From an uncultured Verrucomicrobiae bacterium (GTDB lineage: Bacteria; Verrucomicrobiota; Verrucomicrobiia; Limisphaerales; Palsa-1400): a DNA stretch of 64,000 bases. A program made the translations under genes and the position numbers. Shown piece after piece: positions 6,281-29,504 of the stretch; within the stretch, counting starts at the first letter, position 1; each line of letters opens with the position of its first letter. The notes under the pieces are model-generated. The model did no database searches and was not told the DNA's origin. It worked only from the letters and a program-made list of their open reading frames with translations. Location of the stretch: the NCBI GenBank assembly GCA_963707025.1, contig CAVPOM010000004.1, positions 224,001-288,000 of the forward strand, given 5' to 3'.

Positions 6281-6305
6281 AAAGAAAAGAGTAGCAGACG
6301 TGTCA

Positions 6306-6331
6306 ATAAGGCGGTATATATACCGCCTTAT
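6306..6331. promoter_or_regulatory. Perfect 26-bp palindrome between the divergent IS genes, overlapping the transposase ATG
   Basis: ATAAGGCGGTATATATACCGCCTTAT; repeated at 47349-47374. Confidence 0.7.
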
Positions 6332-7963: not shown

Positions 7964-10900
7964 CTACTGGGTGCGGATGACCTTGTAGAAGCGGGCGGTC
8001 TGCTGGCCGATGGGGGTGGGGTCGGTGTAGGCGCCGACGTAGCCGTCGGTCGTGACGGTGGCGGCTTTGCTCCAGTGGATCAGATCGGAGGACATATCCA
8101 CTTCGTAGGCCGCGCCAGGCCCGGCCGTCCAGGAGAAGGTGAAGCCGTTGGCCCCCGCGCTCATCGCCGAGAACACGATCGCCGGGGTGGTGTAGAGAGG
8201 CGGGCCATTGGTCAAGGTGGTGGCGGTGATGGTAAAGCTGACAGTCTGGGCGGTGTTGTTGGGCACGCCCAGGTACCAGGTGGTGCCGACGAAGGAGGGC
8301 AGCAGGGCGTTGGTCACGATGGTGACCTGTTGCGGGGTGATCCCCGGGCTGAAGCTGCCGTCGGTCATTTCCAGGGGCGTGGGCAGGAAGCCGATGCGCG
8401 CGATCAAATCCACGTTGCCGGTCAAGTTGCTGGCCACAAATTGCACGGCGCTGGCGGCGGGGTTGGTCACGGTGTAGGAATAAAAATTGGTCAGGTCGGG
8501 GCCGGGTCCGATCGTGCCGTTGGCCTGCCAGGCGCCGTTGAGGAAGTTGGTCAGCGGGGTGATGGTGATGGCGCCGTTGGTGATGAAGCTGGCGACCACC
8601 CGGTAGGTGTTGGTGCTGTTGGCATTGAAATTGTAAACGGCCAGATACCAGGTGCCCGGCGTGAGCGGCACGGGTGCGGAGTTGGTGGTGACCTGAAAGC
8701 CCAGGAGGTCGAAGGAGTTGGTGGCCACGACAATGGCTTCGTCGTTGGTCCCCTCGTACGAGGTCTTGTAATCGAACATGGCGCTGGTCGGCAGGGGCAG
8801 GTCGTGCCGGGCGTAAAGGTCCAGTTCGTTGGCCGGATTGATGATTTCAAAGGAGGCCAGGATGGCGTTGGTCGGCACGTCGAAGGAATAGAATTGCGGC
8901 GTGTTGGTGATGGTATTGGTAAAAGCGATGGTGTTGGTCAGGGGGATGGCGCTGAAATTGGTCAGATTTTGGGTGTCCACCTGAACGGTGAAGGTGGCCG
9001 GGTAAGTGTTGGGGTTTTGCACGCCCAGGAAATAGCGCGCGCCGGGCAGCAGGGATGGCGGCGGGGCGTTGTTGCTCAGTTCATAAAAGCCGGTGGAGAC
9101 GTTGGTGAGCAAGGTGTAGTCGCCCGACTGGTCGCCGGTGGGCAGGGCGGTCTGGTTGAAGAGCAGATTCAACTCCGCCGGAAACCCCGCAAGCCCGTTG
9201 CTCAGGCAGTTCCGCAAACGGTTGGTGTCCAAAATGGCGCCGGCGGGAACATCGAAGGCGAAATAGGCGATGTCGTTGGCGGCCACAGTCCCGGCGGTGT
9301 AGGGGACATGGTTGGTCAGCACGATCAGGTTGACGTTGGTGGAGGAGACGGTCATCTGCAGGTTCCAACTGAGCAAAACGCCGTTGGTCACGGCGGTCGC
9401 GTCGGTGCGCGTGTCCCAGACATCCAGCGTCCAGCAGCCGTCGGGATTTTGGCCGGTGAAGGGCGCCAGCGCTTCTTCGGGCTGGACGAAATTGGGAGTG
9501 GCCGGTGTTTGCAGGACGAAATCGTCGAACAACATTCCGAGGGGATGGCCCTCGAGGGCGAAGACAGTGTTGGAGCTGACGGCGGTGAAATAGACGGCGT
9601 TGGTCAGCCAGTTGGTGCTGCTGGCCGGGGCGATCAGGGTGGTGTTGGTCAGGCCGTTGAGCAGGATTTCGCAGTTGGGCAGAATGGAGGTGGGGTTGGC
9701 CTTGCCGATGTGATTGGTGCCCGCCTGGTAGATGGCGGCAATTTCCACATCGGTCAGCGCCCGGTTCCACAGATCCAATTCGTCCACCGCGCCGCTGTAG
9801 GGCTGGGTGCCGTCAACTCCATCGCAGGTGCCAATGCCCAAGTTCAAGGGCTGCGCATTATTAAGATTGGCAATGTCTGGGGCGGTAACGCTGGTTTTGA
9901 ATCGCCCGTCCACATAGGCGGAGTAGAGAGTGCCCCTTCTGGTCCAGGCCACATGATGCCAAAGCCCGTCATTCACCAGGTTGGTAGGGTAGAACGAAAC
10001 GTGTCCTGGGCCGGTGCCATCATCCAATTCCAAACTCACAATTCCAGGCGTTGGGGTGGGGTTTCCAAGACCGATTCGGATATTCCACCAGGTTCCGAGA
10101 TTGCAAATGTCCCGTTTGTCCAAAAAGGCTTCTTCCACGACTGAGGTCGTGTTCATCCAGAAGTCAATGGTGAAGTCATTGGTGCCAAAGTTGCCTGCAT
10201 TCGGGCCGAAGTTGATGTGGGAACCCTGCCCGTCGAACTGGAAGCCCTGGCCAACCACGCCGGTTATGTTGGTTACAGTAGGGGTGATGATTCCATTATT
10301 GGTGCCGATGATGTCGTTGGCGTCTCCTTCAAAGGGCCACCAGTCCACCAGCCCCGGCCCGCGATAAGCATAGGTCAGCGTGTAGGGCTGGCCGATGATC
10401 GTCGGGATCGAGTTGGTCATATAGCCGTCGGCCAGCGCCATATAATTGGTCCCCTCGTAAGCCTGATAGAGGTCGCTCCCGGTCACCACCGCCACCTGGT
10501 TGCTCACCACCGTCCAGCCTTCCACGTTCGTTCCCAGTGTCACGGGGAAAAGGCCGTTGGTCAACCCGTAGGGGCCGGCTGGGACCGTCTCGAAACTGCT
10601 GATAAAAAGATCTACATTGGTCGGTATTTGGCCGTAGGGCGGCGGCACAAACTTGACCAACTGCTGTGCGAAATTGGTGTTGTCGGTGAATGTCAAATAA
10701 ATGTAGCTCCCGTTGCTGGTGGTCAGGCCCAGGTTGGTCACACCCGGCCCGCCCCGGTCCTCGTAAAGCTCCACGCTGGTCCCTTGCGGGCTGGTCAGAT
10801 GCAGGACCAGGTTGTCCGAGTTGGTTTTGGCGATGCGCACCCCCACCTCCAGGCTCACCAGTTGCTGGTTGCTGGCCAAAATCGAGCCGGCCGGGATGCA

Positions 10901-13900
10901 AATCTGGGAGAGGGTGTGGTCGTCCGTCCCCAGCGGCGTCAGCGTGTTGTTGAACTCCGTCAGGGTCAAATTGGGCGTGCCGCTTTCCAAAATGGTAATG
11001 ACCACTTGAATATTGGTCACCGTCGTGCCGCCCTCGTTGGTGATGTCGTAATACCACCGGCCCCCGCTTAACGGCGGCGCGGCCGGCAAGGGATCGGTGA
11101 GGAGGTTCAACGCCGGGTTGGTGCTCAGATTCAATGAGCCGCCGGGAAGACTGATGTTGGTCCCGTAATCGCCGGTGTTGACTACTTGCTGGTTGGTCAA
11201 GAAGATGCCCAACGGCCCGCCATTCTGAAAGCCCACCGCGATGTTCAGGTTGGTCGCGTCATCCGGCACATCCACATATCCGTAATAGGAGGCGTTGGGC
11301 GCCAGGCTTCCTATGACAAAATCCAGCGGGTTGACCGGCTGCGGCCAGATTGTCAGCGTGAGCACCGTCACCATCCCGGTCTGGGTGTAAAGGTTGTCGG
11401 CTTCGTTCAAAATCCACTGCCCGTTGCCCGGCAGCCCGATAAAGTTCCGCAAGGTGGGCGGCCCGTCCGACGCGATGGTATTAGCCAGCGAACCGTCCGG
11501 CAGATCGTCGTAAGTGTTGGTGAACCCGCCCGGCGCCCCGGTAAAATGGTTCGGCACCGACTGCTGCGCATTGTGCGTCAACGTCCCGTAAAGATCGGAC
11601 GGGTTGGAGTGCTGCACCCCGACCGTCGCCGCCACTTTGCGCACCGTGATCGGGCTGGCCACAAAGGCCAGGACGTTGGTCCCTTGCAAGCCTCCGGGGT
11701 CCATGCTGTCCGGTATGGTCGCCGGCAAAGGATAGCCCGACACGGTGATCGGGTTGAGGCCGTTGGGACTGTCAAAGTTGGTCGCCAGCGTCGCGAAGAA
11801 CGCAAAGTCCCCTCCCTGCTGGCTCTCCGACTTGACTCCGGCATAGAACACCGGCACCGAGCTGATGTTGGTGAAGAAGACCGTCTCGTTGCCGCCCTGG
11901 CCCAGCGATTTGTTGGCGCCGGCCAGCGCGGCCGGGTCCAGATTGAACAAGGCCGGATTGGTTGAAACATACAAATCCAGGTCCGCGTTGATGGCCGCCT
12001 GATAGGACCCGTTGACCGGCGACGAAATCGGCACCGTCAGCGTCGGGGGGAGGAAGGTGGCGAAAATGGCGTTGGTGTAGTTGGTGGCGATGTTGGTCCC
12101 GGCGCTGTTGGTCAAGGAGGAGTTCGTCGTGTTATAGTTGACGTTGGTGAAAAGGAAGAAGTGCCACTGCACCAGGCTCCCGTTGGTGCTGCCCGGCGCG
12201 GGGTAAAGGCCCCCGCCGGGATACTCCGCCAGGTTCGGCTCGTTGGCGCCCACCCGCTGGTGCAGCAGGGCCACCCCGTTATTGGCCACCGTCACCAGCG
12301 GCACCGGCGGCAGGCTGCTCGTCCCCAGATCGGTCACCGTCAGCGGCACGGTCAGGGCCGGGTCGTCGCTGGCGATGACCAGGGCGTAGTCCTGGCCGAT
12401 GACGTTGGTCTGGCTGGTCACGGCGTTGACATTGACGCGCGTGCCCCGCACCCACACGGTGTAAGTGGGGGTCAGCCCGGCGCCGGGGTTGATATAAACA
12501 TTCTCCACATTGTTGACCACGTCGCTGAGGTTGTTGACGGCGGCGTTGGTGCTCAGGCCCATTTGGTCCAGCACGTTGGTCGAGAGCGTCACTTCGGTGT
12601 AAATATCCCCCTGTAGAAAATCGTTCCCGACAAACGCATTGGTCTCTGTCCCATGGGTCACCAGCAAATCCAGATTGTTGACCAGCGCCAGCCCCGCCGC
12701 CGGATTGCCCGGCGGATCGGTCCAGACCAGCGTGATGCGCAACGGATAGGTCTGGGCGTTGGTGTCGGCCAGGTTGATGGTGTACTGGTGCCACTGCCCG
12801 GTCTGCAAAGCATTGGTCGGACTCTGATCAAAGAAGACCAAGGACGCACTGCCGTTGGTCAACGAGGCCGGAATGCTGTTGGCCAGATTGGGCAAGCCCC
12901 AGCCCTCCAGATTGACCGCCGGCGCCATGTTCAAATCCGACTGCGCGTTCAACGGGCGCGAGCCGTTGATCAACAGCCCCTTGAGCAGGGCCGGGCTGGG
13001 CGACATCTGGTAGGTGGTGTTCAAAAACTCCTGCACCAGCGCCAGCATCCCCGCCACCGCCGCCGCCGCCATGCTCGTCCCCGACTCATACCGGTAATAC
13101 GGGCCCAACCCACTGTTCAAATTGCTCAACACCTGGTAGTAATTGGTGTAAAGCGAGTTGGTTTCCAGGGCGTAGAACCGCAAATCATACGCCACCGGCC
13201 AGGGCTGGCCGGCCGGATTGTAAATCTCCACAAAACAATTGGTCGCCGGCGGATAAGGCACCACCGGCACTCCCGCCGCGTTGGTCTGCGCCGCCGGCAG
13301 GAGCGACGCGGGCAGCGGCGGATCATTGGTGTCAAAATATATTTGCAGGTTGGTGGGAAACGGCACCGGCGAAAAAGGATTGGGCAGCAACTGGATGGCC
13401 AGGTTGGTCGTCCCGCCAAAGATGGTCACTGCGTAAACGTTGGACTGGCCCGGCGGCACGCTCTGCCCCGCGAATTCGTTGTAACTGAGCGTCTGCTGCG
13501 CCACCGGGTCCTGATAGTTGGTCGCCCGCAGCGACACGGTGAAGGACCCCGGCGCGGCCACGTCCGGCTTGAAGCGCCCGCTCCCGCCCTCGATCCCCAC
13601 ATCCACATTGCCCGCGCTGGAAAATCCCGCCACCTGATTGCTGTCATAGGTCGTGCTCTGAAAAATCGGATCGTTCGTCCCGCTGCCGAAATCCACCAGG
13701 TTGGTGATGAACCGGGGACTGTCCATGGCAGTTACCGTGATCACGTTCTTGGCCGTGCCCGGCGAGGTGATGGAACCGGGCGCCTGGGCCCCGTTGCCCG
13801 CCGCCACCACAAACAGCATGGGATGCTCGAAGGCCGTGCCGGGCTGGGAGTTGCGCGTGGCCAGGTCGTAACTGGCCGCGGGCAGATCGTAGGCCGTGCT

Positions 13901-15148
13901 CTGATAACCCCAGGGCAGGCAATTGATGAAGCCGTTGCTCACCATCGCCGTGTTGGCCGCCGCCATCGCGCTCAAGACAAACGAGGCGTTGGACTGCAAA
14001 TAAGCATCGGAGATATACGGCCCGGTCGTCAAATCCACCCCCTGCACATACAAGCCGGCCTGCGGCGCCATCCCCCGGAACGACGCCCCGGCAACCGAAC
14101 CGGGCGGCGGGTTGGTCAGGCTGGCCGATTCATTGCCCCCGCCCACCATCGTTCCCGCCACATGGGTGCCGTGCCCGTTCGGGTCCGTCAGCGCCGAGGG
14201 AAGGTTCCCCGTCACCCGGCCCGCCGGCCCCAAGTCCGGGTGGGTGGCGTCCACTCCCGTGTCGTCCAGCACCAGCACCATGTTGCTGCCCGTCAAACCC
14301 AGATAGTTGGTCAGGGCGATGGTGTCGGTCGCAACCTCCAGGCGCTCCCGGGTCAAATCATTGAGCAGATGCCGTGGCGAAGACGCTTCGATCTCCTGCG
14401 CCTGCGGCAACTGCGCCACGGCCGCCAACTGGCCCGGCGGCACCGTCACCCGCAAGGTGCTGGCACCAAACAGCCCCGGCTCCTGCTCCGTCACCACCGC
14501 CCCCAGCGCCGTCAGCGCCCGCCCCGCCGCCTCGCCCTGGCCGGGAAAAACCGTCACCCACAACTCATTATTGGTCAGCAAATCCCCGTTGACCGCCCCC
14601 GGCAGCAACGAACTGTCCAGCTTGAAATACGGCTCATAGGGCAGCACCGCCTGAAACACCCGGTCCGCCACCATGGCTTTCGCCGCTTCCGGCCCGGCCC
14701 GCACCAGGGCCGCGTTGACCGGCATGAAAGAGACAAACTCCGCCCCGTCCCGGCGCAAGGCCGCATAAAACTCCCCGTTCAACGGACGATCCGATTGCAC
14801 CAGATAGCTGCCCGGCGCGCCGTGCGACCGCAGCGCCTCCGGCACGCCCAGCGCCACCGGCCGGGCCGTGTCAATCAGCGCGTTGCGCAGCAGCAGGCCG
14901 TGCGGGTTGCGCGCCAACTGCGCGGCCGTTTGCGGCGTGTTGCTCAGGCGATAGGAGCGCGGCGTCTTCGGCGGCGCGGGGACCGCTGGGGCGGATGGGA
15001 CCGATGGGACGGATTTGCCGGATGAGGCCGGCGCGAGGGCCAAGGCCCGGCGCGAGGCGGCGCGGCGGTCTCCGGCCTGCCACAGGCAGAGGGCCGCCGC
15101 AAAGAGCAGCAAACTGAGAACGAGCCAGAATCCAGGTCTCAAACGCAT
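7964..15148 (-). CDS. Giant exported multidomain S8 (subtilisin-like) serine peptidase with P-domain-like, LamG-like and PPC-like modules
   Basis: N-terminal hydrophobic segment; catalytic D (LDDTGVD), H (NGHGTHVAG), S (SGTSMAA); oxyanion AAGNG, TAKNVITV, FKPDVAAPG. LamG-like W.FEG...FTIDFW...DGLWHHVAW...DELDLWNRAL; PPC-like DLYAR and DLIAR repeats. Confidence 0.9.
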   Translation of the reverse strand: MRLRPGFWLVLSLLLFAAALCLWQAGDRRAASRRALALAPASSGKSVPSVPSAPAVPAPPKTPRSYRLSNTPQTAAQLARNPHGLLLRNALIDTARPVALGVPEALRSHGAPGSYLVQSDRPLNGEFYAALRRDGAEFVSFMPVNAALVRAGPEAAKAMVADRVFQAVLPYEPYFKLDSSLLPGAVNGDLLTNNELWVTVFPGQGEAAGRALTALGAVVTEQEPGLFGASTLRVTVPPGQLAAVAQLPQAQEIEASSPRHLLNDLTRERLEVATDTIALTNYLGLTGSNMVLVLDDTGVDATHPDLGPAGRVTGNLPSALTDPNGHGTHVAGTMVGGGNESASLTNPPPGSVAGASFRGMAPQAGLYVQGVDLTTGPYISDAYLQSNASFVLSAMAAANTAMVSNGFINCLPWGYQSTAYDLPAASYDLATRNSQPGTAFEHPMLFVVAAGNGAQAPGSITSPGTAKNVITVTAMDSPRFITNLVDFGSGTNDPIFQSTTYDSNQVAGFSSAGNVDVGIEGGSGRFKPDVAAPGSFTVSLRATNYQDPVAQQTLSYNEFAGQSVPPGQSNVYAVTIFGGTTNLAIQLLPNPFSPVPFPTNLQIYFDTNDPPLPASLLPAAQTNAAGVPVVPYPPATNCFVEIYNPAGQPWPVAYDLRFYALETNSLYTNYYQVLSNLNSGLGPYYRYESGTSMAAAAVAGMLALVQEFLNTTYQMSPSPALLKGLLINGSRPLNAQSDLNMAPAVNLEGWGLPNLANSIPASLTNGSASLVFFDQSPTNALQTGQWHQYTINLADTNAQTYPLRITLVWTDPPGNPAAGLALVNNLDLLVTHGTETNAFVGNDFLQGDIYTEVTLSTNVLDQMGLSTNAAVNNLSDVVNNVENVYINPGAGLTPTYTVWVRGTRVNVNAVTSQTNVIGQDYALVIASDDPALTVPLTVTDLGTSSLPPVPLVTVANNGVALLHQRVGANEPNLAEYPGGGLYPAPGSTNGSLVQWHFFLFTNVNYNTTNSSLTNSAGTNIATNYTNAIFATFLPPTLTVPISSPVNGSYQAAINADLDLYVSTNPALFNLDPAALAGANKSLGQGGNETVFFTNISSVPVFYAGVKSESQQGGDFAFFATLATNFDSPNGLNPITVSGYPLPATIPDSMDPGGLQGTNVLAFVASPITVRKVAATVGVQHSNPSDLYGTLTHNAQQSVPNHFTGAPGGFTNTYDDLPDGSLANTIASDGPPTLRNFIGLPGNGQWILNEADNLYTQTGMVTVLTLTIWPQPVNPLDFVIGSLAPNASYYGYVDVPDDATNLNIAVGFQNGGPLGIFLTNQQVVNTGDYGTNISLPGGSLNLSTNPALNLLTDPLPAAPPLSGGRWYYDITNEGGTTVTNIQVVITILESGTPNLTLTEFNNTLTPLGTDDHTLSQICIPAGSILASNQQLVSLEVGVRIAKTNSDNLVLHLTSPQGTSVELYEDRGGPGVTNLGLTTSNGSYIYLTFTDNTNFAQQLVKFVPPPYGQIPTNVDLFISSFETVPAGPYGLTNGLFPVTLGTNVEGWTVVSNQVAVVTGSDLYQAYEGTNYMALADGYMTNSIPTIIGQPYTLTYAYRGPGLVDWWPFEGDANDIIGTNNGIITPTVTNITGVVGQGFQFDGQGSHINFGPNAGNFGTNDFTIDFWMNTTSVVEEAFLDKRDICNLGTWWNIRIGLGNPTPTPGIVSLELDDGTGPGHVSFYPTNLVNDGLWHHVAWTRRGTLYSAYVDGRFKTSVTAPDIANLNNAQPLNLGIGTCDGVDGTQPYSGAVDELDLWNRALTDVEIAAIYQAGTNHIGKANPTSILPNCEILLNGLTNTTLIAPASSTNWLTNAVYFTAVSSNTVFALEGHPLGMLFDDFVLQTPATPNFVQPEEALAPFTGQNPDGCWTLDVWDTRTDATAVTNGVLLSWNLQMTVSSTNVNLIVLTNHVPYTAGTVAANDIAYFAFDVPAGAILDTNRLRNCLSNGLAGFPAELNLLFNQTALPTGDQSGDYTLLTNVSTGFYELSNNAPPPSLLPGARYFLGVQNPNTYPATFTVQVDTQNLTNFSAIPLTNTIAFTNTITNTPQFYSFDVPTNAILASFEIINPANELDLYARHDLPLPTSAMFDYKTSYEGTNDEAIVVATNSFDLLGFQVTTNSAPVPLTPGTWYLAVYNFNANSTNTYRVVASFITNGAITITPLTNFLNGAWQANGTIGPGPDLTNFYSYTVTNPAASAVQFVASNLTGNVDLIARIGFLPTPLEMTDGSFSPGITPQQVTIVTNALLPSFVGTTWYLGVPNNTAQTVSFTITATTLTNGPPLYTTPAIVFSAMSAGANGFTFSWTAGPGAAYEVDMSSDLIHWSKAATVTTDGYVGAYTDPTPIGQQTARFYKVIRTQ

Positions 15149-15217
15149 GGGACGCCTCCAGCGCAAAGTATAACGCCAATTGCCAGAATGTAAAATGGAG
15201 ATTGCGGCTTCATATCA

Positions 15218-18200
15218 TCAGTCGGCGGGGAGGATGTTGAAGCTGTCAACCTGGATTCTGAGGTTGGCGGCGGTGGGGTCGCCGACGATGTGGCAGACGG
15301 TGCGGGTGACAAACTCGCCGGTGATCTGGTAATTGGTGCAGAGATTGAAATTGGGCGGGCCGCCGAAATAAATGTCCTTGGGCTTGAGGGCCTGGCCGAA
15401 GCTGTAGATGACAAATTGCGGCTGGCCCAGTTTGAGCAGCCCGGCCACCTGCTGCGGAATGGCCTCCACTTCCTCGTCCTTAAAATCGCCGGCCGGCCCA
15501 GGGAGGAAGGGGGATTCAGTCGAAAGTATGGGCGACTTGAACACGCTGCCCAGGCTGTGGAAGGTCTGGTCCGGTTCCAAGCTGCGCAAGACGTTGATGC
15601 CGGCAATGAAATTCGTGACAGGTTGGTTGTTGGCGCCGTTAGTGATGATGTACATGCCATCCACCAGCGAGCCGATGATGGTTGGATCCAACACCAGGTT
15701 GCTGCCGATGGGAGGGCCGACGGAGTGGGCGCCGAGGTAGGGGGCGTTGGTGTTGAGGGCAATCCCGCTGAACAGGGCATACCAGGGGGCCGAGTTGGTC
15801 TGGTTGACGGAGAGCAGGCCGCGGGCGGCGTTGTCGTTGGGCGCGGCGGTGAACAGGTCCAGCAAGGCGTAATCGTTGGTGGGATAAGTGTCGAAGGTGC
15901 TGACCCAACTGCCAATCCACGCTTGCTGGTTCGGATTGACTCCATTTATAAGCGCATCCGGGTCGGCCTTTAAGAAAATAGTCTGCCAGGGAGTGCCGCG
16001 ATGGACACGGCCCAACCAGCCGATGCTGGGGAATTTATTGGCCGGGAAATTCCAGTCATCCGAACTGGTTATTTGCGGGTCCTTAAGGGTCATGTTCGCA
16101 CCGAAGCCCGGCTCGATGCGGTTTGGCCAGGGTTCATACCGGTCATTGTAGGTGAGGACTTGAGATGTATCGGTCACGGGGGGTACATTTTGGGTCAAGG
16201 GGGGTGTGAGGTCGCCCACCGTATAATGAACCAGCGGGTCATTCGCGATCAGCGTATTGGTGACGCCTGTAAAAACGACGGCGGCGGTGTCATTTGAACA
16301 GCTAAAATAGAGGTTTGAATTACCCACACTAACTCCGACAAGTTCCTGGCCGAAGTCGTTTGGATCAAAACTGATGCCGTTCGCAATTTGGTTGGACAAC
16401 CCCGCGGAAAGGCCGGAAGGACCCGGGGTGGGATCCCAATACTTTGTGTTGGGCGTTGAGCCGGAGCCGACGGCTGGGGGCGCGTTCCCATATAAAATAT
16501 TGGTGAGAATCAGGTTGGTGCCGAACGGCCCCAGGTTGACGAAATCAAACGCCTGGCCGCTGCCAGGGTCCACCAGGGCATACATGACGCGGTTGGTGAC
16601 ACTCAGTGTCCAGCCGTAAACCGGCCAGGCCGTTTGTCTCAGGTCGTTGGACAGGAAAGTGCCAAGCTGGTATCCGAAGTCATTTGTCAGATCAACATAC
16701 ACCGGGACAAACCGGTGTTGGGTTTCCGAGAAATAAGAAGGCGGCAGGGAAGGCACATTGGTTTGCAGGAACCCCAGCATTCCACTCGATGAGTGTCTGG
16801 GATCCAAAAACTTACCCGCACCGTTCGTCCAAAACCTGCTGAAATAATTGGTTGAATTTATAAAATTCGTAACAAAACCGCCGGGGTTTCCCGCCGAATT
16901 GTTAGTAAGGACGACTGAGACAACGGTGGTGGCGATGACCTCGAACGGCGCAGGAAGGCTGATGTTGGACGCGTATGAATTCCAGGCATCCAGGCCGAAG
17001 ATGTTGGAAATGGACATGATAAAGAACTGGTTGGTGAAGGCCGGACGCGCGATTGCGTTGCCAAAGGGGGTGCCGGGGACGGGTTGTCTCGCGAACAGGA
17101 GCTTGCGCGTCACCGCCCAGGAAATGTCCGGAACGTAGCGGTCGAAAGCGGGCAGCCCCTTGACGGCGCCGACCACCCAGGGGATGCCCCAGATATTGCC
17201 GTTGTAAAAGGTGTTGGCCGGGAAATTGTTGGAATCGGTCACATCCACGAAGCCCTTGGAAATCTGGAAGATGGCATCGGTGTTCACGTTGGTATAACCG
17301 GCGATATAGACAACGCGGTTGGTCCCCCCGTAATTGGTGGCGAAGAAAATCGGGCGAAAGACCGAAGGGTAAGGAAGCGGCAGCGTTCCGGGCGGCGTCA
17401 TCTTGTTGGTTCTGGTGTCGTCGTAGATGTTGGCGGCCAGTTGGAGCATGCGATGAAGGTTTTCGGTGTAGCGAATGCTCGGGTTGAGGGAGTTGTAAAC
17501 CGGGATGTTGGTCACGCCAAAGTGGACATAGGACAAGTTGGTCGGGATCAGGACCTGGTTGGGCGGCAGGCCGCCGACCAGGTAATTGGTGATGCGAAAA
17601 TCCTGGGAGCGGAGCAGGCTCTCGGCGGCGTTGGTGAAAAAGCCGAGGGCACCGTTCTGGGGAATGCCCACGGGGGCGCCGGCAATCTCTGCCGTCCAGG
17701 GGATCAAGGTGGTCGGCGAGGTGTTCAGGCCGTTGGCAATCTGAAAGGTGTTATCGTAGTTGAGGTTGACCTTGGTGCGCAGAACAGTTGGCGGCTGGAG
17801 CGCGGGATTGGTGGTGATGACATCGCCATAGACGTAGGTTTGGAGTTCGGGGGTGGAGCCGGTGCCGATGGCGGCGAGCATGCGCTGGAAGGTGTAGCGG
17901 TCGTAGGAATTGGTGTAGAACCCGGCCGGGAGCAGGCGGTTGGTGATAAAGGCCGGGGAGGTTTTGCCGGGGTTGAACACGTCCTGATAGGTGTTGTAGA
18001 AATTATTGGTGGCATAGCTGCCGGGCCAGGGCGCATTGGTGGATGGATAGAGTGCGAGGGCTTCGGTGCCGTATTCATCAATGCCGTCCAGGTTGTAGTT
18101 GGGCGTGGTAGGACCAAAGTAAGCGGCCAGACTCAATGGATAGGGACCGCCATAGCTGGTATTGTAGCGGAAACGGAGGAAGGAATAGGCATCGTCGAAA

Positions 18201-20229: not shown

Positions 20230-20248
20230 GGCGTTGGGGATTTGGTTT

Positions 20249-21139: not shown

Positions 21140-22155
21140 CGTTGCTGGTTGCGTTCGACTTTGGCCCGGGCGGTCAGCCAGTCAAGGTGGATGACATTGC
21201 AATTGTTGACGGCGTTGCCGGCGGGGGCTTCAATGGGAGTGGCGGCGACCGGGCCGGCGGCGCCCACGGGGTAGAGGACGCGCCCGCGGTCCAGGGGGAT
21301 GAATTCGTCGCCATTGGTGGCCAACTGGCCCAGGGGGCTGAAGCCAATGCAGGGCAAAGCCGGGGTAAAGGCGGCGCCGGCTGCGGTCACCGCATCCGTC
21401 GCCGGAAACGGGATCAGAATCTGGGCGAAGGGGTAGATTTGAAACGCGTTGGTCAGGCCCGACAGGGTGTTGGTGGAGGTCACCAGCACAGGCTGCGGGC
21501 TGGCAAACTTCCACGGGGCGACGAACACGCCGTCGGGCAGCGGCTTCCACTCAGTCAAGTATTGGGGATGGGCCTGGCCCGGCTGGTCCCCCACGCTGCG
21601 CAAGCTGACCAGGGCATAGGCGCCGTACTGATGGGCCAGCAGGTTGTTGTAGCTGCTCGCCTCGTTGGCCGGAACGCCGCCGGCCACGGGAAGCGGGGGA
21701 ACAAAAACCATATAGACGGTGCTGCGGTGGGACATGGCCAGTTGGCGGGCCAGCGCGCAATCGCCCAGCATTTGCTGGACGGCGGTGGTCATGGAATTGG
21801 CGCGCGTCATGCCCGGCAGATGCGGCAGGGCCAGGGCCGCCAAAAATCCGATGATGGTGACGACGACGAGCATCTCCAAAACCGTGAAGGCGCGGCGGGA
21901 ATTGGACAGGGTGAATCGGCCAGGGTAAATCGGGGAAGCGAGCGGGTGCCGGCCGCGCTTGAAGCCAAGGCCCGGCGCGGGGTTTCCGTCATGGGACGGC
22001 GCGCCGCCGCCCTGCCGGCGGACCAGCCTCCAACCGGAGCCGGCCGCGGTCGGGGCGGAACTGGAACGGACGGCGGCCGGGATCCAGGACTGGTCGCGCC
22101 AGAGAACGCGCAACGGTCTTGGGCCTGGCTGGGAATGGAGTGGCGCGGCGGTCAT
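21136..22155 (-). CDS. Minor (pseudo)pilin, FimU/GspH-like
   Basis: A|FTVLEMLVVVTIIG...LARQLAM (GspH/FimT-like). Start at 22155 would give an 89-aa leader. Confidence 0.8.
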   Translation of the reverse strand: MTAAPLHSQPGPRPLRVLWRDQSWIPAAVRSSSAPTAAGSGWRLVRRQGGGAPSHDGNPAPGLGFKRGRHPLASPIYPGRFTLSNSRRAFTVLEMLVVVTIIGFLAALALPHLPGMTRANSMTTAVQQMLGDCALARQLAMSHRSTVYMVFVPPLPVAGGVPANEASSYNNLLAHQYGAYALVSLRSVGDQPGQAHPQYLTEWKPLPDGVFVAPWKFASPQPVLVTSTNTLSGLTNAFQIYPFAQILIPFPATDAVTAAGAAFTPALPCIGFSPLGQLATNGDEFIPLDRGRVLYPVGAAGPVAATPIEAPAGNAVNNCNVIHLDWLTARAKVERNQQR

Positions 22156-22161
22156 GGGAGT

Positions 22162-22858
22162 TTACCAGTTGCCGTTGGTGATGATGATGAGGTTGCCCGC
22201 GCTGTCCTTGCCGGCGGAGGTACTCAGCCCAGAGATCGAAGCCGGTGGAGTTGTGGCGGCTGGCGGAGGAGCAGTCGTAATGCCACAAATTGAGTTCGTT
22301 GGCCGCGAAGGTGCGCGGCACCGGCACGGCCAGTTGATTCAATTTAAAACCGCTGCCGTTGGTCACCAGGTAGTCCTTGGGGCCGGGGAGCGGCTGGTAA
22401 AAAGCGCGGGTTTCATCCGGGAGCGAATTGGCGATGCCGCCGCGGCCGTAGGCGGCGCTGAAGGTGGTGGCGGCAATGCGGGTTCCATCGAAAGCCAGAA
22501 AGTAATTGACACCATTGACATTGGTGACGGGCGCGCCGGTCAGTTCATAGAGCAGAGGATTCATGCCGGTGGAATTCTCATAACTGAGGTTGGTATTGTT
22601 ATTGGCGCCGGTGAGGACGTTCAGAGCGTTGTCCGGCGGATAAAAGCCCATTTTGGAATAGTAGGTGGAAATGAAGAGCGCGAGCGCGTTTTTCCTGGCG
22701 GTGACGACGGCGTCATGTTTCTTGCGGGCGGCCAGGGCGCCCAGACCGGTCAGCATGGCGGCGATGATGGCGATGACGGCGATGACCACCAGCAATTCGA
22801 TGAGGGTGAACCCATTTGCCATCCCGCCTGCGCCCGGTTTTGTCTGGCTCGTGTTCAT
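22162..22858 (-). CDS. Prepilin (GspG/PilE-like), apparent single extra base near 22219
   Basis: G|FTLIELLVVIAVIAII...Y.SKMGFYP...FDLWAEY. Removing one C gives SAGKDSAGNLIIITNGNW* ending 6 nt before the next ATG. Confidence 0.8.
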
Positions 22859-23163
22859 GGCATTCCGCTTTCGGAGCGGCTGTCAACCCTTTGTTCCCGC
22901 ATTTCCTGTTCCATCCGCTCGCTCAGCCATTGTTTCATCATGCTTTGATAGTTGAGGTAGCGGGAGCGGGCCACGCGCTTGATCCGGGTCAGCATGCGCG
23001 GGTCCATGCGCAAGGTGATGGTGACCGAATCGGCCATCTCGCTGGCCGCCGTGACGGAGCGTTCCATCAGCCTGACCTCGATGCGGTTGTGCGCCCAAAA
23101 GGCGGCCTCGGCCTCCTCGCGGTCGAAGAGGGGGACATCGTCCCAGTTGGCGATGGCATTCAT
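22855..23163 (-). CDS. BrnA/CopG-like ribbon-helix-helix antitoxin
   Basis: VPLFDREEAEAAFW...ITLRMDPRML..IKRVAR...YQSMMKQWLSER; stop overlaps the pilin ATG. Confidence 0.8.
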   Translation of the reverse strand: MNAIANWDDVPLFDREEAEAAFWAHNRIEVRLMERSVTAASEMADSVTITLRMDPRMLTRIKRVARSRYLNYQSMMKQWLSERMEQEMREQRVDSRSESGMP

Positions 23164-23166
23164 GGT

Positions 23167-23454
23167 TTATTGGGCAAGGGCATGGGAAAGCCGGCGCTGG
23201 TAGAGGAATTTTTCCTCCGGCTCAAAGGGGCGGGCGAAAATCACGCGGGCCTGCTTTCCGTTGGTGCGAAAGACGGTGAAAATCCCCTGGCCGCTGGCAG
23301 CGACGCCCAGATTGAAGAAGCGCGCCTGGACCTCGAATCTGGGGGAATCGGGGAGCAGACGAACGGCAAACGGGTCTTCAAAAGACTCCTCAATAAGCCC
23401 CAAGGATAATGAGGGATCCAAATTGAACGGCGGATTGTTCCAGTCAAACTCCAT
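23167..23454 (-). CDS. BrnT-family toxin-like protein
   Basis: MEFDW...EESFEDP...RFFNLG...VF...RVIFARP...E...Y; lies upstream of a BrnA-like gene. Confidence 0.75.
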   Translation of the reverse strand: MEFDWNNPPFNLDPSLSLGLIEESFEDPFAVRLLPDSPRFEVQARFFNLGVAASGQGIFTVFRTNGKQARVIFARPFEPEEKFLYQRRLSHALAQ

Positions 23455-23477
23455 ATTATGTAAATCAAATGGCCATG

Positions 23478-23493
23478 CAATGTAACTACATTG
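23478..23493. promoter_or_regulatory. Inverted-repeat operator candidate upstream of the brnT-like gene
   Basis: CAATGTA-AC-TACATTG; minus-strand TTGACA at 23517-23522. Confidence 0.5.
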
Positions 23494-23573
23494 TATTTAC
23501 AACATGTCCTGGAGAATGTCAAGGGCTCAAGTGCGAAAAAGCACCAAACAATGCAGATTCCCGGCTTTTGATC

Positions 23574-24920
23574 TCAATTCTTCAGTTCCGCAGCGGTGGC
23601 GGCTCCGACTCCGGATCCGTTGGCCTCTTCGCCGCCGACAGTGTTCATCAAGTCAATGAGGGGCAGGAACATGGCGATGACGATGCTGCCGACGACGACG
23701 GCCAGGAAGACGATCATGATCGGTTCCAGGAGGGAAGTCATGGAGGCGACGGCGTTGTCCACCTCTTCATCGTAGCTGTCGGCAATTTTCATCAACATTT
23801 CGGGCAGGGCGCCGGTTTGTTCGCCGACATCCACCATGCTGACGACCATGGGTGGAAAGACGCGGGAAGCCTCCAGCGGGGCGGTGATGGTTTCGCCTTC
23901 CTTGACGCTTTCATGGACGTCGGAAACGGCCTGGGCGATGACGACATTGCCGGAAGTTTCCTTGACGATGGTCAGAGCTTGCAGAATGGGCACGCCGCTG
24001 CTGACCAAGGTGCCCAAGGTGCGGGTGAACCTGGAGATGGCCACTTTGCTGATGACGGGTCCCAAAACCGGGATTTTCAGCTTGAACTGGTCGAAAAGGC
24101 GGCGGCCGGCCTTGGTGTAAACGATGATGCGAAACAGGATGAAAGCGGAGGCGAGGATGATGAGCGTGCGGACAATATGGAGGCGGATGGCATCGCTGAT
24201 ATTGAGAACCAGGGTGGTGAACGGGGGGAGTTCCTTTCCGCCGGTGAGGGTGCCTTGAAAGACATCCTTGAACTTGGGGATGACGATGATCATGAGAATG
24301 GCCATGATGCCGGTGGCCACAGTGATGACGGCACAGGGGTAGAACATGGCGGCAATGACTTTGCCTTTGATCTTCTGGGCCTTTTCCATGAATTCGGAAA
24401 GGCGGCGGAGCACGACTTCGAGCACACCGCCGATTTCACCGGCTTTGACCATGTTGACAAACAGGCGGTTAAAGACCTTGGGGTGCTGGGCCAGGGCCTC
24501 GGAAAAGGTGCTGCCTCCTTCAATGGCCGTTCCCAGATCGCCCAGGATGTTCTTGAGGTTGGCGCTTTTTTCCTGCTTTTGCAGCACGCGCAGTCCGCGC
24601 AACAGCGGCAAGCCGGCCTGCACCAGCGTGGATAATTGCCGGGTGAAGGTGGTCAGCACCTTGGACTTGACCCGACCGCTCAGTCCGGGGATGTTGATCT
24701 GGAAATTGAGGCCGGTGCTGCCCTTCTTGTCGCCTTTTTTGGCGGGCCTTTTGGCGCCGGTGTCGGCCGCCTTGCCGGCGCCTTTGTCCTCCACGACCTT
24801 GGTGGGGAAGAACCCCATGTCGCGGATGCGGCCGATGGCTTCATTCTGGCTGCTGACTTCGAGCGTGCCTTTGGTTTCCTTGCCCCGGGCGTCCATGGCC
24901 ACATAGTTATATTTTGGCAT
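23574..24920 (-). CDS. pilC: Type IV pilus / T2SS platform protein PilC/GspF
   Basis: FTRQLSTLVQAGLPL, VKAGEIGGVL, AMFYP, VGEQTGAL, SLLEP. Confidence 0.95.
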   Translation of the reverse strand: MPKYNYVAMDARGKETKGTLEVSSQNEAIGRIRDMGFFPTKVVEDKGAGKAADTGAKRPAKKGDKKGSTGLNFQINIPGLSGRVKSKVLTTFTRQLSTLVQAGLPLLRGLRVLQKQEKSANLKNILGDLGTAIEGGSTFSEALAQHPKVFNRLFVNMVKAGEIGGVLEVVLRRLSEFMEKAQKIKGKVIAAMFYPCAVITVATGIMAILMIIVIPKFKDVFQGTLTGGKELPPFTTLVLNISDAIRLHIVRTLIILASAFILFRIIVYTKAGRRLFDQFKLKIPVLGPVISKVAISRFTRTLGTLVSSGVPILQALTIVKETSGNVVIAQAVSDVHESVKEGETITAPLEASRVFPPMVVSMVDVGEQTGALPEMLMKIADSYDEEVDNAVASMTSLLEPIMIVFLAVVVGSIVIAMFLPLIDLMNTVGGEEANGSGVGAATAAELKN

Positions 24921-24924
24921 AAAA

Positions 24925-26640
24925 TCAGGTGTATTTGACGACTTCTTCAATGGTGGTTTCCCCGTCGAAAATGCCGCGCAAGCCGTCCTCGCGCAGCGTC
25001 ACCATGCCCTGTTCGACGGCCTTCTGGCGGATGACCACGGTCGGAGCCCGTTCGTTGATGAGCAACCGGATGGGGTCGGAGGCGACGAGCAATTCAAAAA
25101 TGCCCCGGCGGCCTCTGTAACCGGTGTCGTTGCAGGCGGCGCAGCCGCGGCCGTAGTAGAAGACCTTGTCGCCGATGTCATGCGGCGAAAGGTTCAGGAG
25201 GGAAAGCTGGTTCTCGGTCGGCTCGAAAGGCGTCCGGCACTTTTTGCAGATGGTCCGCACCAGGCGCTGGGCCAGCACCGCCATCAAGGTGGAAGAGATC
25301 AAAAATGGTTCCACTCCCATGTCAATCAAACGGGTGACCGCCCCGGAGGCGTCATTGGTGTGGAGGGTGGTCAGGACCAGGTGGCCGGTGAGGGAGGCCT
25401 GGATGGCGATTTGCGACGTCTCCAGGTCGCGCATTTCCCCGAGCATGATAATATCCGGATCCTGCCGGAGGAAGGCGCGCAAGGCCCGGCTGAAGGTCAT
25501 GCCCACCGCTTCATTGACCGCCACTTGCATGATGCCTTCCATGTCATATTCCACCGGGTCCTCCACCGTCAGCAGTTTGCTGTCCATGAGGTTGACCTGC
25601 TGCAGGCACGAATAGAGGGTGGTGGTTTTGCCGCAGCCGGTCGGCCCGGTGACGACGATGATGCCATTGGGCCGGAAGATGGCCTGCAGGAGATAATCCA
25701 GCGTGGCCTTGGGCATGCCCAGGCCTTTAATGTCCAGGTTGACCGCGGCGCGATCCAGCACGCGCAAGACCACCGATTCGCCAAACTGGGTGGGCAGGGT
25801 GGAAACGCGCAAATCAATTTTCCGGCCGTTGACGGTGATGGCGATGCGTCCGTCCTGGGGCAGGCGGCGCTCGGAAATGTCCAGGTTGGCCATGACCTTC
25901 AAGCGGGAGATGACCGGCAGGGCCAGGTTTTTTGGGGGCGGGGCCATTTCGTAGAGCGCGCCGTCCACGCGGTAGCGGATCTTGAATTCGTCCTCAAACG
26001 GCTCGAAATGAATGTCGCTGGCCCGGTCCGCCACCGCCTGGGAAAGCACCAGGCTGACAAACTTGATGATGGGCGTGGCGTCGGCCAGATTGGCCAGGTC
26101 CTGCGTCCCGCCGGCGGCTTCGGCTGCGGCCACCTCGCGCGCGATGTCCTCGTTGCTGCCCAACTCCTTGAGCATTTCGCCGACATCGCTTTGCGCCTCG
26201 CCGTAGTAGCGGGTGATGGCCTCCTCAATGTCCTTGGGATCGGCCACCAGCGGCACGATCTCCTTGCGCAGCAAATAGCCCAATTCATCCACCAGCGGTT
26301 GGTTGAGCGGATCGGCCAGCGCAAGGTGGATGCTGGAATCGAACACGGCCACCGGCAGGCACTTGTAATTGCGGGCCGTGTCCGCCGGGACCGCCGAGAG
26401 AACATCCGGGGTCAGATCCTTGCCGCCCAGTTGAATGACTTCGGTGCCCAGATGGGTGGCGATGGTCTGGAGTTGCGTGGCCGTGTCCATCAGGTCGAAA
26501 TCATTCAAGATCTCCCCGATGGGCTTGCCGGTGCGGTTGTGCTCATCCTTGACTTCGTCCAATTGCAGGTCGTCGAGCAGATGGCTGTCCCGAATGAGGT
26601 TGAGCAGCGGGCTGGAAACAGGTTCGGACTTGGGGTTCAT
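24925..26640 (-). CDS. PilB/GspE-family extension ATPase (second paralogue)
   Basis: [45 protein letters not shown], Zn-binding CxxC pairs. Confidence 0.95.
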
Positions 26641-27752
26641 TTGGTCTCTCCTGGGTGCAGGGCGGCTGCTTCCGCCTGGGCGGCTTCCCACTCCGCCAGC
26701 TTCTGCACCACGGTGGTGGGGTCCTGGGATTTGGTGATCACCTCGTCGCGGGAAATCAGGCCCTTCATGTGCAATTCCATGAGGTAGCCGTCGAGGGTGA
26801 CCATGCCGTACTTGCCGCCGGTCTGAATGTCGGAATTGATGCGGAATGTTTTGTTGTCCCGGATCAGCGCCTGGATGCCGGGCGTATTGATCATGATTTC
26901 GTAGGCGGCCACCCGCCCCGGCTTGTCGCAGCGCGGCAGGAGCAATTGGGAGATGACGGCCTGCAAGACGGTAGAAAGCTGGATGCGGATGGTTTCCTGT
27001 TGTTGCATGGGGAAGGCGTTGACCAATCGGTCAATCGTCTTGGCCGCGCCGGTGGTATGCAAAGTGGCGAAGACCAGGTGCCCGGTTTCCGCCGCCGTGA
27101 TGGCGGCCTCCATCGTTTCCAGATCGCGCAACTCGCCCACCAGAACCACGTCCGGGTCCTGGCGCAGGGCGCGGCGCAAGGACTCGGAAAAGCTGGGGAC
27201 ATCAATATGAACCTCGCGCTGGGTGACGATGGCCCTTTTATGTTTGTGGTAATACTCAATCGGGTCCTCCACTGTGATGATGTGGGCATCGTCGCGGGTT
27301 TCGTTGATGATGTTGATCATCGAAGCCAGGGTGGTGGTTTTGCCCGAGCCGGTCGGGCCGGTGACCAGGATCAGTCCGCGCGGCTTGCGCAACAAGCCGT
27401 TGATGGTATGCACGGGCAGGCCGATTTGCTCCAGGGTCAAGAGCAGGGTGGGAATCTGGCGCAGGACAATGCCGAAATCCCCCTTGGTCTTGAAAACGCT
27501 GACGCGGAAGCGGGCCACTTCGCCAAAGGCGAAACCGAAATCGGCCCCGCCCTTCTCCCGCACCTGCTGAATGTGGTCTTCGCTCGTGACGCTGCGCACC
27601 AATTCTTCCACGTCTTCGGGCCGCAACTGCGGCCCGTCCACCCGGTGGAGAATGCCATGAACCCGGATGACCGGGGCGACATAAGAGCGGAGGTGCAAAT
27701 CGGAGGCGCCCTCCTGCACCACCAACTGCAATAAATCAGCCATCGAATACAT
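26637..27752 (-). CDS. pilT: Type IV pilus retraction ATPase PilT
   Basis: [57 protein letters not shown]. Confidence 0.95.
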
Positions 27753-27797
27753 ACTGGTTCCAACTCTTGGTCTTGCGCTCTATTATTCTAATGCATT

Positions 27798-29504
27798 TTA
27801 ATCGGCATCGCCAGTGGTGGCGCGGATCACTTCATCGGCCGTGGTCAGCCCGGCCAGGACCTTGCGCGCCCCGTCTTCGCGCAACGTGCGCATGCCCATC
27901 TCGCGGGCCCGGGCGCGCAAGACGGAGGAGGAGACCCGCTCATAGATCAATTTGCGGGCCTCGTCGTCCAGGACGAAAATCTCAAAAATGCCAAAGCGGC
28001 CGCGATAAGTGGTTTTGTTGCAATCGCTGCAGCCCTTGCCCTGCATGCAGTTGGCCCCGGCCAATTGGCCGGCATCCAGGTTCAAACCCTTCAGCTCCGT
28101 GTCGCTGGGCGTATAGGGGGCGCCGCAACGCTTGCAGACTTTGCGCACCAGCCGCTGGGCCATCAAGGCGCGGACGGAGGAGGCGACCAGGAAGGGCTTG
28201 ACGCCGATGTCAATCAAACGGGTCACGGCGCTGGGAGCGTCGTTGGTATGGAGGGTGGAGAAGACCAGGTGCCCGGTGAGGGAGGCGTTGATGGCGATGG
28301 TGGCGGTTTCCACGTCGCGGATTTCCCCCAGCATGATGACGTTGGGGGCCTGGCGCAACATGGAGCGCAGGGCCATGGCGAAGGTCAGCCCGACGGTTTC
28401 GTTGACCTGCACCTGGTTGATGCCGGAGAGCAAATATTCCACCGGGTCCTCCACCGTGATGATCTTGCGGTCCGGGCGGTTGATGAAATTTAAACAGGAA
28501 TACAGGGTGGTGGTCTTGCCCGAACCGGTCGGGCCGGTCACCAGCAGGATGCCGTCCGGCAGGCCGATCAAGCGCTCAAAAGTCTGCTGGTCATCGGTGA
28601 AAAAGCCCAGTTCCGGCAGGCCCAGGCGCAATCCTTCCTTGTCCAATATACGCATGACGATGCTTTCCCCGTGATTGGTCGGAATGCAGGACACGCGCAG
28701 GTCAATCAACTTGCCTCCCACCGAGGTCTGAATGCGTCCGTCCTGCGGGATGCGCCGTTCGGCAATGGACATGGCGGACTGGATTTTGATGCGGCTGAGT
28801 ACGGCGGCTTGCAACCGCTTGGGCGGGCTTTTCATCTCATGGAGCATGCCGTCAATGCGGTAGCGCACCCGGAAGGTCTTGGAGAGCGGTTCCAAATGAA
28901 TGTCCGAGGCCCGCGCCCGGAAGGCTTCCACGATGAGCATGTTGACCAGCTTGATGATGGGGGCGTCGGCTTCCACGGTGGCGCCATCGTCCCCGATCTG
29001 CTTTTTGGCGCCCGCAATGTCCACTTCGCCCTCGGTGATTTCCTGGATCATGTTGGAGACCGACTCGTCCGCCGCCCCGTAGTATTTGTTGAGCGCGGCC
29101 TCGATGTCTTCCGGGGTGGCCACGCGCCACTCGATTTCGGCGTTGATCATGCGTTGCAGGCTGTCAATGGTGTCCAAATCGGACGGATCGGCCAGGGCCA
29201 CCGTGATGGCGTTGTTGTTTTTGGCCACCGGGATGGCCCGATATCGCTTGGCCACATGGCGCGGCACGGCGGCAATCACGTCATCGGGCAGGCGCAGGTT
29301 GCTTAAAGTGACGAATTCGTAGCCGAGATGGGAGGCCTTGGCCTGGGCCACATCGGAGGGCGAAACAATTTTGCGGGTCAGCAGCAGGTCCAGCAGCCCT
29401 TCGGAGTTGGCCTCGGCTTCCTCGCGCAACGGGGCCAGTTGCTCGGCGCTGACGCGCCCCATGTCCACCAATAAATCTACTAAATTGTCGTCTTTCGCGG
29501 CCAC
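27798..29504 (-). CDS. pilB: PilB/GspE-family extension ATPase
   Basis: [32 protein letters not shown], CxxC pairs; GTG start. Confidence 0.93.
   Translation of the reverse strand: MAAKDDNLVDLLVDMGRVSAEQLAPLREEAEANSEGLLDLLLTRKIVSPSDVAQAKASHLGYEFVTLSNLRLPDDVIAAVPRHVAKRYRAIPVAKNNNAITVALADPSDLDTIDSLQRMINAEIEWRVATPEDIEAALNKYYGAADESVSNMIQEITEGEVDIAGAKKQIGDDGATVEADAPIIKLVNMLIVEAFRARASDIHLEPLSKTFRVRYRIDGMLHEMKSPPKRLQAAVLSRIKIQSAMSIAERRIPQDGRIQTSVGGKLIDLRVSCIPTNHGESIVMRILDKEGLRLGLPELGFFTDDQQTFERLIGLPDGILLVTGPTGSGKTTTLYSCLNFINRPDRKIITVEDPVEYLLSGINQVQVNETVGLTFAMALRSMLRQAPNVIMLGEIRDVETATIAINASLTGHLVFSTLHTNDAPSAVTRLIDIGVKPFLVASSVRALMAQRLVRKVCKRCGAPYTPSDTELKGLNLDAGQLAGANCMQGKGCSDCNKTTYRGRFGIFEIFVLDDEARKLIYERVSSSVLRARAREMGMRTLREDGARKVLAGLTTADEVIRATTGDAD

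Follow-up and report, generated by a model that had tools for sequence, protein, structure and literature searches.

A giant subtilase gene behind a type IV pilin cassette in Limisphaerales, and the large unnamed C-terminal domain family to which its tail belongs

The locus and its question

Why does a set of type IV pilin genes end in the gene of a giant subtilisin-like protease? The question is raised by a 64,000-nucleotide stretch of DNA from an uncultured Verrucomicrobiae bacterium of the order Limisphaerales (assembly GCA_963707025.1, contig CAVPOM010000004.1, positions 224,001 to 288,000), which is called here the window and whose source genome is referred to as G000. All open reading frames (ORFs) of the locus lie on the minus strand, and their identities were assigned with Pfam and NCBIfam/TIGRFAM models, using bit scores and curated cut-offs. 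A previous sequence-only reading had described the run pilB-pilT-pilB2-pilC-(brnT/brnA)-pilins, then a giant pilin of the PilX/GspK type (K in the following) and an S8 subtilase, and every ORF of this run was recovered in its place. That reading had offered two functions, a pilus tip complex or a dedicated secretion module; the second comes closer to the present results, the first is not supported by them, and the C-terminal domain that the protease shares with other proteins had been missed.

The pilin-subtilase unit is real and order-wide, and the protease ends in a member of a very large unnamed family of terminal domains, called the tail below. What is new here is this shared domain, which resembles fibronectin type III (FnIII), and its joint absence with the S8 gene. 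The order is a large group of soil and water bacteria and includes abundant polymer degraders. No account of the tail, of the K-S8 pair or of large-enzyme export in these bacteria was found in the literature, supplements and most subscription journals lying outside the scope of that search. The features at the centre of the argument are the following.

15218..19183, minus strand: giant K/PilX-type pilin, 1321 aa, no Glu at +5, no library match
15167..15194, minus strand: sigma-70-like promoter candidate for S8 (TTTACA-16-TATACT), not above chance alone
7964..15148 (ORF 7964-15166), minus strand: giant S8 subtilase, 2394 aa, start ATG at 15148 behind GGAGG
13073..14263, minus strand: S8 catalytic triad region (D302 at 14261-14263, H332 at 14171-14173, S698 at 13073-13075)
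7967..8206, minus strand: unnamed C-terminal tail domain of S8, about 75 aa, six predicted strands, FnIII-like, ending RFYKVIRTQ

Conservation of the pilin-subtilase pair

A search of 40 relatives with both K and S8 found the genes adjacent and co-oriented in 30 of them; the other 10 break at contig ends or miss one gene there, and there is no informative exception to the adjacency among the 40. Two genomes considered as exceptions to the synteny, G026 and G028, were rejected because both are contig ends. The synteny that the sequence-only reading had put forward as a check thus holds order-wide, with one further case (G141) in another class.

The S8 orthologue, called at E 1e-70, is present in 217 of 251 genomes of the order, including genomes of 2.3 Mb, and other orders in the class sample carry distant S8 paralogues only (E 5e-43 or weaker). 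Beyond the class, an orthologue of 3,500-4,200 aa occurs in 11 of 200 genomes of the phylum, all of them from another class. G141 presents a pilin cassette, one gene on the opposite strand and then S8, and in six more of these genomes pilin, pilM, pilB or pilC genes lie no farther than about 10 kb from S8; in the remaining four no filament genes were seen near S8 among the matches listed.

The other-class protease of about 4,000 aa adds a Kelch propeller and TSP3 repeats. In four other-class loci it is directly followed by a lipoprotein-like gene of 305-327 aa (L078:3391-4329, L087:2711-3691, L089:2212-3126, L093:14265-15203) that has no match in G000, and no conserved gene after S8 was found in the order. 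Two loci titled Akkermansia muciniphila (L034 and L035) hold the whole stretch from brnT to S8; the titles may be wrong, and this locus was seen in none of the 16-24 genomes of the tail-less genus g31.

A shared C-terminal tail domain

A profile iterated from the last 75 residues of S8 found 106 domains in 98 ORFs of G000, of which 93 end within 15 residues of the stop, and it matched none of the reversed ORFs. Among the 13 internal matches, 8 lie ahead of a terminal copy. At E 0.001 the tail matches 71,031 database clusters; among the 120 matches listed it stands at the end of the protein in 119 and in more than one copy in 12. It is present in 77 of 200 genomes of the phylum and in 247 of 251 of the order, and at the end of 10 of the 11 S8 orthologues inspected, the eleventh being cut by the locus end. 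In 70 of 88 tails the last aromatic motif is followed by 4-5 residues.

Concerning its identity, 21 tails gave no useful match to Pfam and NCBIfam, PF00041 included, and none of them matched the Pfam and NCBIfam models for T9SS (type IX secretion system) sorting domains at E 0.1. An Atlas search with the tail returned unnamed Verrucomicrobiota clusters only (0.95-0.96). The structural model has six strands (pLDDT 88.5); its alignment with FnIII chains, 90-101 residues in length, spans their first 75-83 residues (Z 6.0-6.6, a common level), and its best overall fold match reaches Z 7.7, again with common FnIII/Ig domains. As the alignment covers only this first part of the chains, the model suggests an FnIII-like sandwich that appears without its last strand.

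The proteins that carry the tail are large (64 of 93 have at least 500 aa) and are likely to be secreted: by a crude test a signal-like N-terminus occurs in 50 of 78 carriers versus 362 of 974 other long ORFs, and an internal membrane helix in 1 of 78 versus 146 of 974. Of 20 carriers drawn at random from the 78, 14 contain GH30, S8, sedolisin, M12, CotH, BspA, LamG, PA14, PKD or Ig domains, and the names among the database proteins include rhamnosidases, a fucosidase and proteases. These cargo families overlap with those of the T9SS in CotH, BspA, M12 and LamG. Since the tail occurs in 71,031 clusters without a family model, it offers a way to predict the secretome of these bacteria. The tail proteins, S8 and K are also rich in Asn and Thr, with 1.37 N-x-S/T and 1.86 TN per 100 residues in the tail proteins, compared with 0.38 and 0.33 in other long ORFs (a control that includes shadow ORFs); the N-x-S/T enrichment may possibly correspond to glycosylation sites of secreted proteins.

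Genomes without protease and tails

The order-wide tail scan (251 genomes, at most 22 tails counted per genome) found 0-2 tails in 13 genomes, namely all 11 of family f71 and both of family f9, and none of the 13 has an S8 orthologue. Every other genome has at least three tails, and the four lowest of these (3, 5, 7 and 9) have S8. Small genome size is no explanation, because S8-positive genomes of 2.3-2.8 Mb hold 24-36 tails.

In 6 of the 11 f71 genomes a uvrA-like gene lies directly behind an intact K, and a clean loss of S8 in this family fits the order K-S8-uvrA of locus L036. K itself was found in 7 of the 11 genomes of f71 and in the two of f9; in the latter it runs into a contig edge. 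Fourteen of the 34 S8-negative genomes were derived by comparing the S8 list with the list of the tail scan. Of the 21 genomes that are rich in tails but S8-negative, 13 have a contig that stops within K or S8 or immediately behind one of them, and K is missing as well in the other 8; none of the 21 has an intact K followed by another gene.

A candidate sorting system

The gene order, the intact catalytic triad, the terminal position and family size of the tail and its joint absence with S8 in two families could be read together as follows: the tail is an export tag, the filament is the exporter and S8 processes the tagged proteins. This is a plausible, unproven reading, and as a complete chain it is proposed tentatively, at rather less than an even chance. 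Tagged proteins would very probably cross the inner membrane by Sec. The tail, FnIII-like and seemingly without its last strand, would then probably be read as a sorting signal. In a third step, for which the odds appear slightly under even, a filament like that of the type II secretion system (T2SS), tipped by H-I-J-K and with K closing its own sheet, would push the cargo through one of the secretins of the genome, PilB, PilT and PilC being supplied by the window locus or by another. Finally, the single-copy S8, itself tagged, might remove the tag or mature the cargo, as PorU does in the T9SS, a step that could almost equally well occur or not, with a slight leaning towards not.

The analogy has a clear limit in the enzyme: PorU is a gingipain-like cysteine enzyme, and the protease here is an S8 serine enzyme. 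The likeness lies in the organization. In the T9SS, according to the accessible parts of the published descriptions, many secreted enzymes and adhesins bear a common small C-terminal beta-sandwich and one protease is dedicated to them (PMC5562754, PMC4804311, PMC4560394, PMC8545088); here too, many proteins end in a small beta-sandwich and one protease is tied to the system. On the other hand, the tail matches no T9SS model, the neighbouring genes are those of a type IV filament, and any cleavage and anchoring are putative here. The SprA/Sov model TIGR04189 matched none of nine genomes, with a control that was also silent everywhere. An undescribed sorting system of Verrucomicrobiota, in which T9SS-like logic runs on a type IV filament, with an FnIII tag that lacks its last strand and is recognized by strand completion, carried by tens to more than a hundred enzymes and adhesins in each genome, and with S8 in a sortase-like role, would be a rather unlikely extension of these observations. 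If a type IV filament does read the tail, the machinery would resemble type II secretion and have a cargo signal that is defined and can be transferred. To our knowledge such a signal is a long-standing gap for the T2SS, and we know of no terminal domain shared by T2SS cargo.

Several observations weigh against the proposed export and processing. The families f71 and f9 branch early in both the PilC tree (11 rows) and a quick K tree (21 rows, long branches), so that the joint absence amounts to one or two events. S8 is itself tagged, and if all tagged proteins were lost together it would disappear with them, even as plain cargo. In other lineages, five genomes rich in tails (21-28 or more) have no S8 orthologue and carry distant subtilases of 650-930 aa only, and in G527 (one contig, 90% complete, at least 22 tails) neither K nor S8 was found. 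The cassette is not specific to the tail, since f71 keeps all of it without tagged cargo, and K-like N-termini also occur in families without a tail match. The exporter could be any one of the six secretin matches or of several further GspE/F loci in G000. A clustering of tail genes with pilin genes was looked for and rejected, as 8 of 93 lie within 3 kb where 7.7 are expected, so that tail genes are no nearer pilin genes than by chance. Moreover, G141 is alone among the other-class genomes in having a cassette next to S8, one gene apart, and tails occur in tandem, as structural domains do (the 13 internal matches in G000 and 12 of the 120 listed in the database).

Such tandem copies would be expected if the tail were an ordinary structural or surface-binding FnIII-like module and S8 served the filament, for example by clipping K, as mycosins do for type VII systems. 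The common FnIII/Ig domains among the best fold matches (Z 6-7.7), the N-terminal helix of S8, which could anchor the protein, and the existence of the central domain of K as a separate protein also agree with it. This explanation is nevertheless improbable: the tail is strictly terminal on unrelated enzymes and adhesins and keeps its distance to the last aromatic motif in 70 of 88 cases, K persists without S8 in f71, and the joint absence of tails and S8 would be left unexplained.

The S8 subtilase

The ATG at 15148 lies 69 nt past the stop of the giant pilin, close to the 70 nt noted from the sequence alone, and the length of 2394 aa and the intact triad were confirmed as well. The protein consists of an N-terminal signal or anchor helix, a propeptide, a catalytic domain of the KP-43/SubHal type, P-domain-like and LamG modules and the tail. 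With residue numbers counted from the TTG start, all 14 orthologues that were aligned have D302, H332, the oxyanion residue N458 and S698. Regarding the accessory modules predicted earlier, Pfam supports LamG and the P-domain besides S8 itself, and PPC does not match the window protein, being found only in three of the four orthologues scanned. The catalytic domain and the following barrel are closest to the oxidatively stable subtilases KP-43 and SubHal (PDB 1wmd and 5fax, E 3e-59 to 8e-59), from which the protein differs by at least 1,400 further residues, the N-terminal helix, the tail and its fixed place behind K. Within the order, the propeptide and catalytic region show 37-69% identity, and the accessory part varies among orthologues from 2,240 to 4,131 aa.

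The gap between K and S8 measures 6-910 nt in 27 loci, and S8 may have its own promoter, for which the candidate at 15167..15194 is a weak sign: sigma-70-like sites of this kind were found six times against 4.6 expected by chance. The gene is mostly single-copy and occupies the same place wherever checked.

A house extracellular protease encoded beside its secretion machine could look much the same, and S8 would then be merely one cargo of a system in which the tail is the export tag. It is tailed like 92 other proteins of G000, KP-43 and SubHal, which are secreted proteases of broad action, are nearest to its catalytic domain (E 3e-59), its accessory part is variable, it possibly has a promoter of its own, and tail-rich lineages without an S8 orthologue exist. 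There is also a precedent in Dichelobacter nodosus, where, in the available portion of the report, type IV fimbriae are required for the secretion of AprV2-type subtilases (PMC4196234); as far as that portion goes, the proteases are plain cargo there and no shared tail family or giant K is described, which sets this case apart. Against mere cargo stands the constancy of S8: it is kept in 217 of 251 genomes, 2.3-Mb ones included, mostly as one copy in the same place and with a propeptide and catalytic region 37-69% identical order-wide, and nothing of similar constancy was noticed among the other tagged proteins, whose conservation was not measured. S8 as simple cargo is regarded as rather unlikely, and S8 as the processing enzyme of the tagged proteins is retained as the working proposal.

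Other S8 genes were also noticed. G020 (5.3 Mb) has six S8 matches on four contigs and G013 has three, which may be either true duplicates or redundancy of the assembly. In many genomes of the order (G007, G013, G031, G037-G040 and others) another conserved S8, about 1,700-1,770 aa long, lies away from the cassette; it was not found in G000. In G043 (L094:9748-16264) a small pilin and a related S8 of 965 aa face pilC and pilB, which represents a second S8-filament arrangement.

The giant pilin K

K has no Glu at +5 and gave no match in the Pfam and NCBIfam libraries or in a profile-sequence search of the PDB. A relative of 1186 aa was modelled (pTM 0.74, mean pLDDT 72.8), showing a long N-terminal helix, an early strand (194-205), a large insertion and three C-terminal strands (1121-1133, 1150-1166 and 1172-1182). 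These closing strands are conserved in the alignment, the last one being VVESFN-like. Foldseek found nothing for the model at E 0.001, and HHalign of K with a K-like protein of 1698 aa from G163 aligned the N-terminal helix only.

According to the accessible text of PMC13533445, PilY1/PilC act by donating their last strand to K, GspK and some giant K pilins supply their own, and a self-closed K is the arrangement of filaments without a tip adhesin. The sequence pattern and secondary structure of K are consistent with a pilin that closes its own sheet in the manner of GspK, and under the rule described in that text it would need no PilY1. The giant K of the Thermus competence pilus and of Tad (CpaL) is comparable, as far as the same text describes it, K itself bearing the C-terminal strands behind a large insertion (PMC13533445). 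Furthermore, the gene order G-H-I-J-K and the lack of Glu at +5 in K recall the GspH-I-J-K tip of the T2SS. The differences are the size of K (1,186-1,800 aa), which has no fold match, and the PilT and two PilB genes that are sometimes adjacent. No secretin or GspC/L/M gene lies in the window locus.

The view of the earlier reading, in which S8 replaces PilY1 and is held by the minor pilins at the tip of a retractile pilus, has to be judged at this point. The layout is indeed like fimU-pilV-pilW-pilX-pilY1 of type IVa pili, with a large, predicted Sec-exported non-pilin gene behind pilX and with PilT, PilB and PilC present. In 30 of 40 relatives S8 lies behind K, where pilY1 would be expected, PilT scores over its cut-off, and S8 ends in a strand like PilY1/PilC (PMC13533445, accessible text). 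PF05567, the PilY1 family, matches neither the gene after K nor anything genome-wide in G000, with a weak control. However, the last gene is a subtilase that matches no beta-propeller family and whose tail is common to 92 other proteins, the model gives K three closing strands at its C-terminus, the arrangement in the adhesin-less filaments of that source, K stands without S8 in six genomes, where the uvrA-like gene comes directly next and the f71 cassette does without the protease, and the motor genes are usually located elsewhere. A tip-held protease is therefore a low-probability explanation, and S8 probably does not stand in for PilY1.

A free-standing secreted protein corresponding to the middle of K, about residues 485-1000, was also seen (L075:5231-6862, L076:5591-7369, L148:9930-12254); in G019, G023 and G527 it ends in a tail domain.

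Promoter, regulator, pilins and motor genes

The remaining features of the locus, all upstream of K, are listed here.

27798..29504, minus strand: PilB/GspE-type extension ATPase 1 (MshEN + T2SSE), TIGR02538 613.7 and TIGR02533 614.1 bits, both under cut-off
26637..27752, minus strand: PilT retraction ATPase, TIGR01420 432 bits, cut-off 319
24925..26691, minus strand: PilB/GspE-type ATPase 2, by Pfam/NCBIfam matches
23574..24950, minus strand: PilC/GspF platform protein, by Pfam/NCBIfam matches
23477..23522, minus strand: conserved putative promoter/operator, a TTGAC box, 16-17 nt, then repeated GTAAATACA boxes
23167..23454, minus strand: BrnT-like protein, weak Pfam match at profile positions 19-77 only
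22855..23163, minus strand: BrnA/CopG-like ribbon-helix-helix protein, by Pfam/NCBIfam matches
22162..22858, minus strand: first pilin (G-like), with one extra base near 22219
21136..22155, minus strand: H/FimU-like pilin, TIGR02596 40.1 bits, cut-off 70
20249..21139, minus strand: I/PilV-like pilin, TIGR02598 25.3 bits, cut-off 51.4
19180..20229, minus strand: J/PilW-like pilin, TIGR02599 16.7 bits, cut-off 256.5

Of 32 loci, 6 have the motor block pilB-pilT-pilB-pilC directly beside the cassette and 19 do not, the other 7 being too short (6 of 25 informative loci); motor genes also adjoin the cassette in G296, G032 and G568. The BrnT-like gene, by comparison, is in place in 27 of the 28 loci that reach it, with 45-96% identity of its product, and the TTGAC box, 16-17 nt before the repeated boxes, was recovered in 20 of 27 upstream regions, where shuffled sequences gave a mean of 0.006 and a maximum of 1. 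Because the motor block is adjacent in few loci while brnT/brnA and the promoter are kept, the fixed unit is promoter-brnT-brnA-G-(extra pilin)-H-I-J-K-S8 and not a PilT locus, and the retractile pilus locus of the earlier reading is not supported as a unit.

The BrnT model scores 19 bits (cut-off 34.5) and leaves its first 18 profile positions unmatched, and the CopG antitoxin model scores 38.6 over a cut-off of 28. The pair is about 45-97% identical among the loci, and it is more conserved than the pilins behind it. It could be a domesticated operon regulator rather than a mobile toxin-antitoxin pair, with the GTAAATACA boxes as the putative binding site of the BrnA-like protein. An operator scan of G000 gave a single site scoring within the training range; a BrnA regulon extending to the tail genes was rejected, there being no second strong operator site in that genome.

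The four pilin-type genes ending in a very large member recall the Verru_Chthon cassette of the same phylum (TIGR02596, 02598, 02599, 02600), whose models the earlier reading had suggested scanning. Membership was rejected, as B (25.3 against 51.4 bits), C (16.7 against 256.5) and D (40.1 against 70) match N-termini only and under cut-off and A (TIGR02600) has no match. The first pilin, read from 22858 down, leaves its frame near 22219 through one surplus base. This is probably an assembly error, because the contig of run X1 is identical over 198 nt around 22219 and lacks that base.

Both ATPases score similarly on the PilB (TIGR02538) and GspE (TIGR02533) models, below both cut-offs. A paralogue on contig C1 of G000 is 81% identical to the PilT of the window, and three PilM matches lie in the genome away from the locus.

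Other filament genes of the source genome

G000 is rich in filament genes beyond the window. It has 74 prepilin-motif matches (one probably false), with about 50 similar pilins of 225-310 aa and six PilA-like pilins of 115-116 aa, five PilT-like paralogues besides that of the window, and three more runs with G/H/I/J-like pilins and GspE/F (two on C6 and one on C16). On the other side of the protease, an IS4-family transposase gene (NF033592 over cut-off) occupies window positions 6300-7817 on the plus strand, between S8 and yajC-secDF-recJ.

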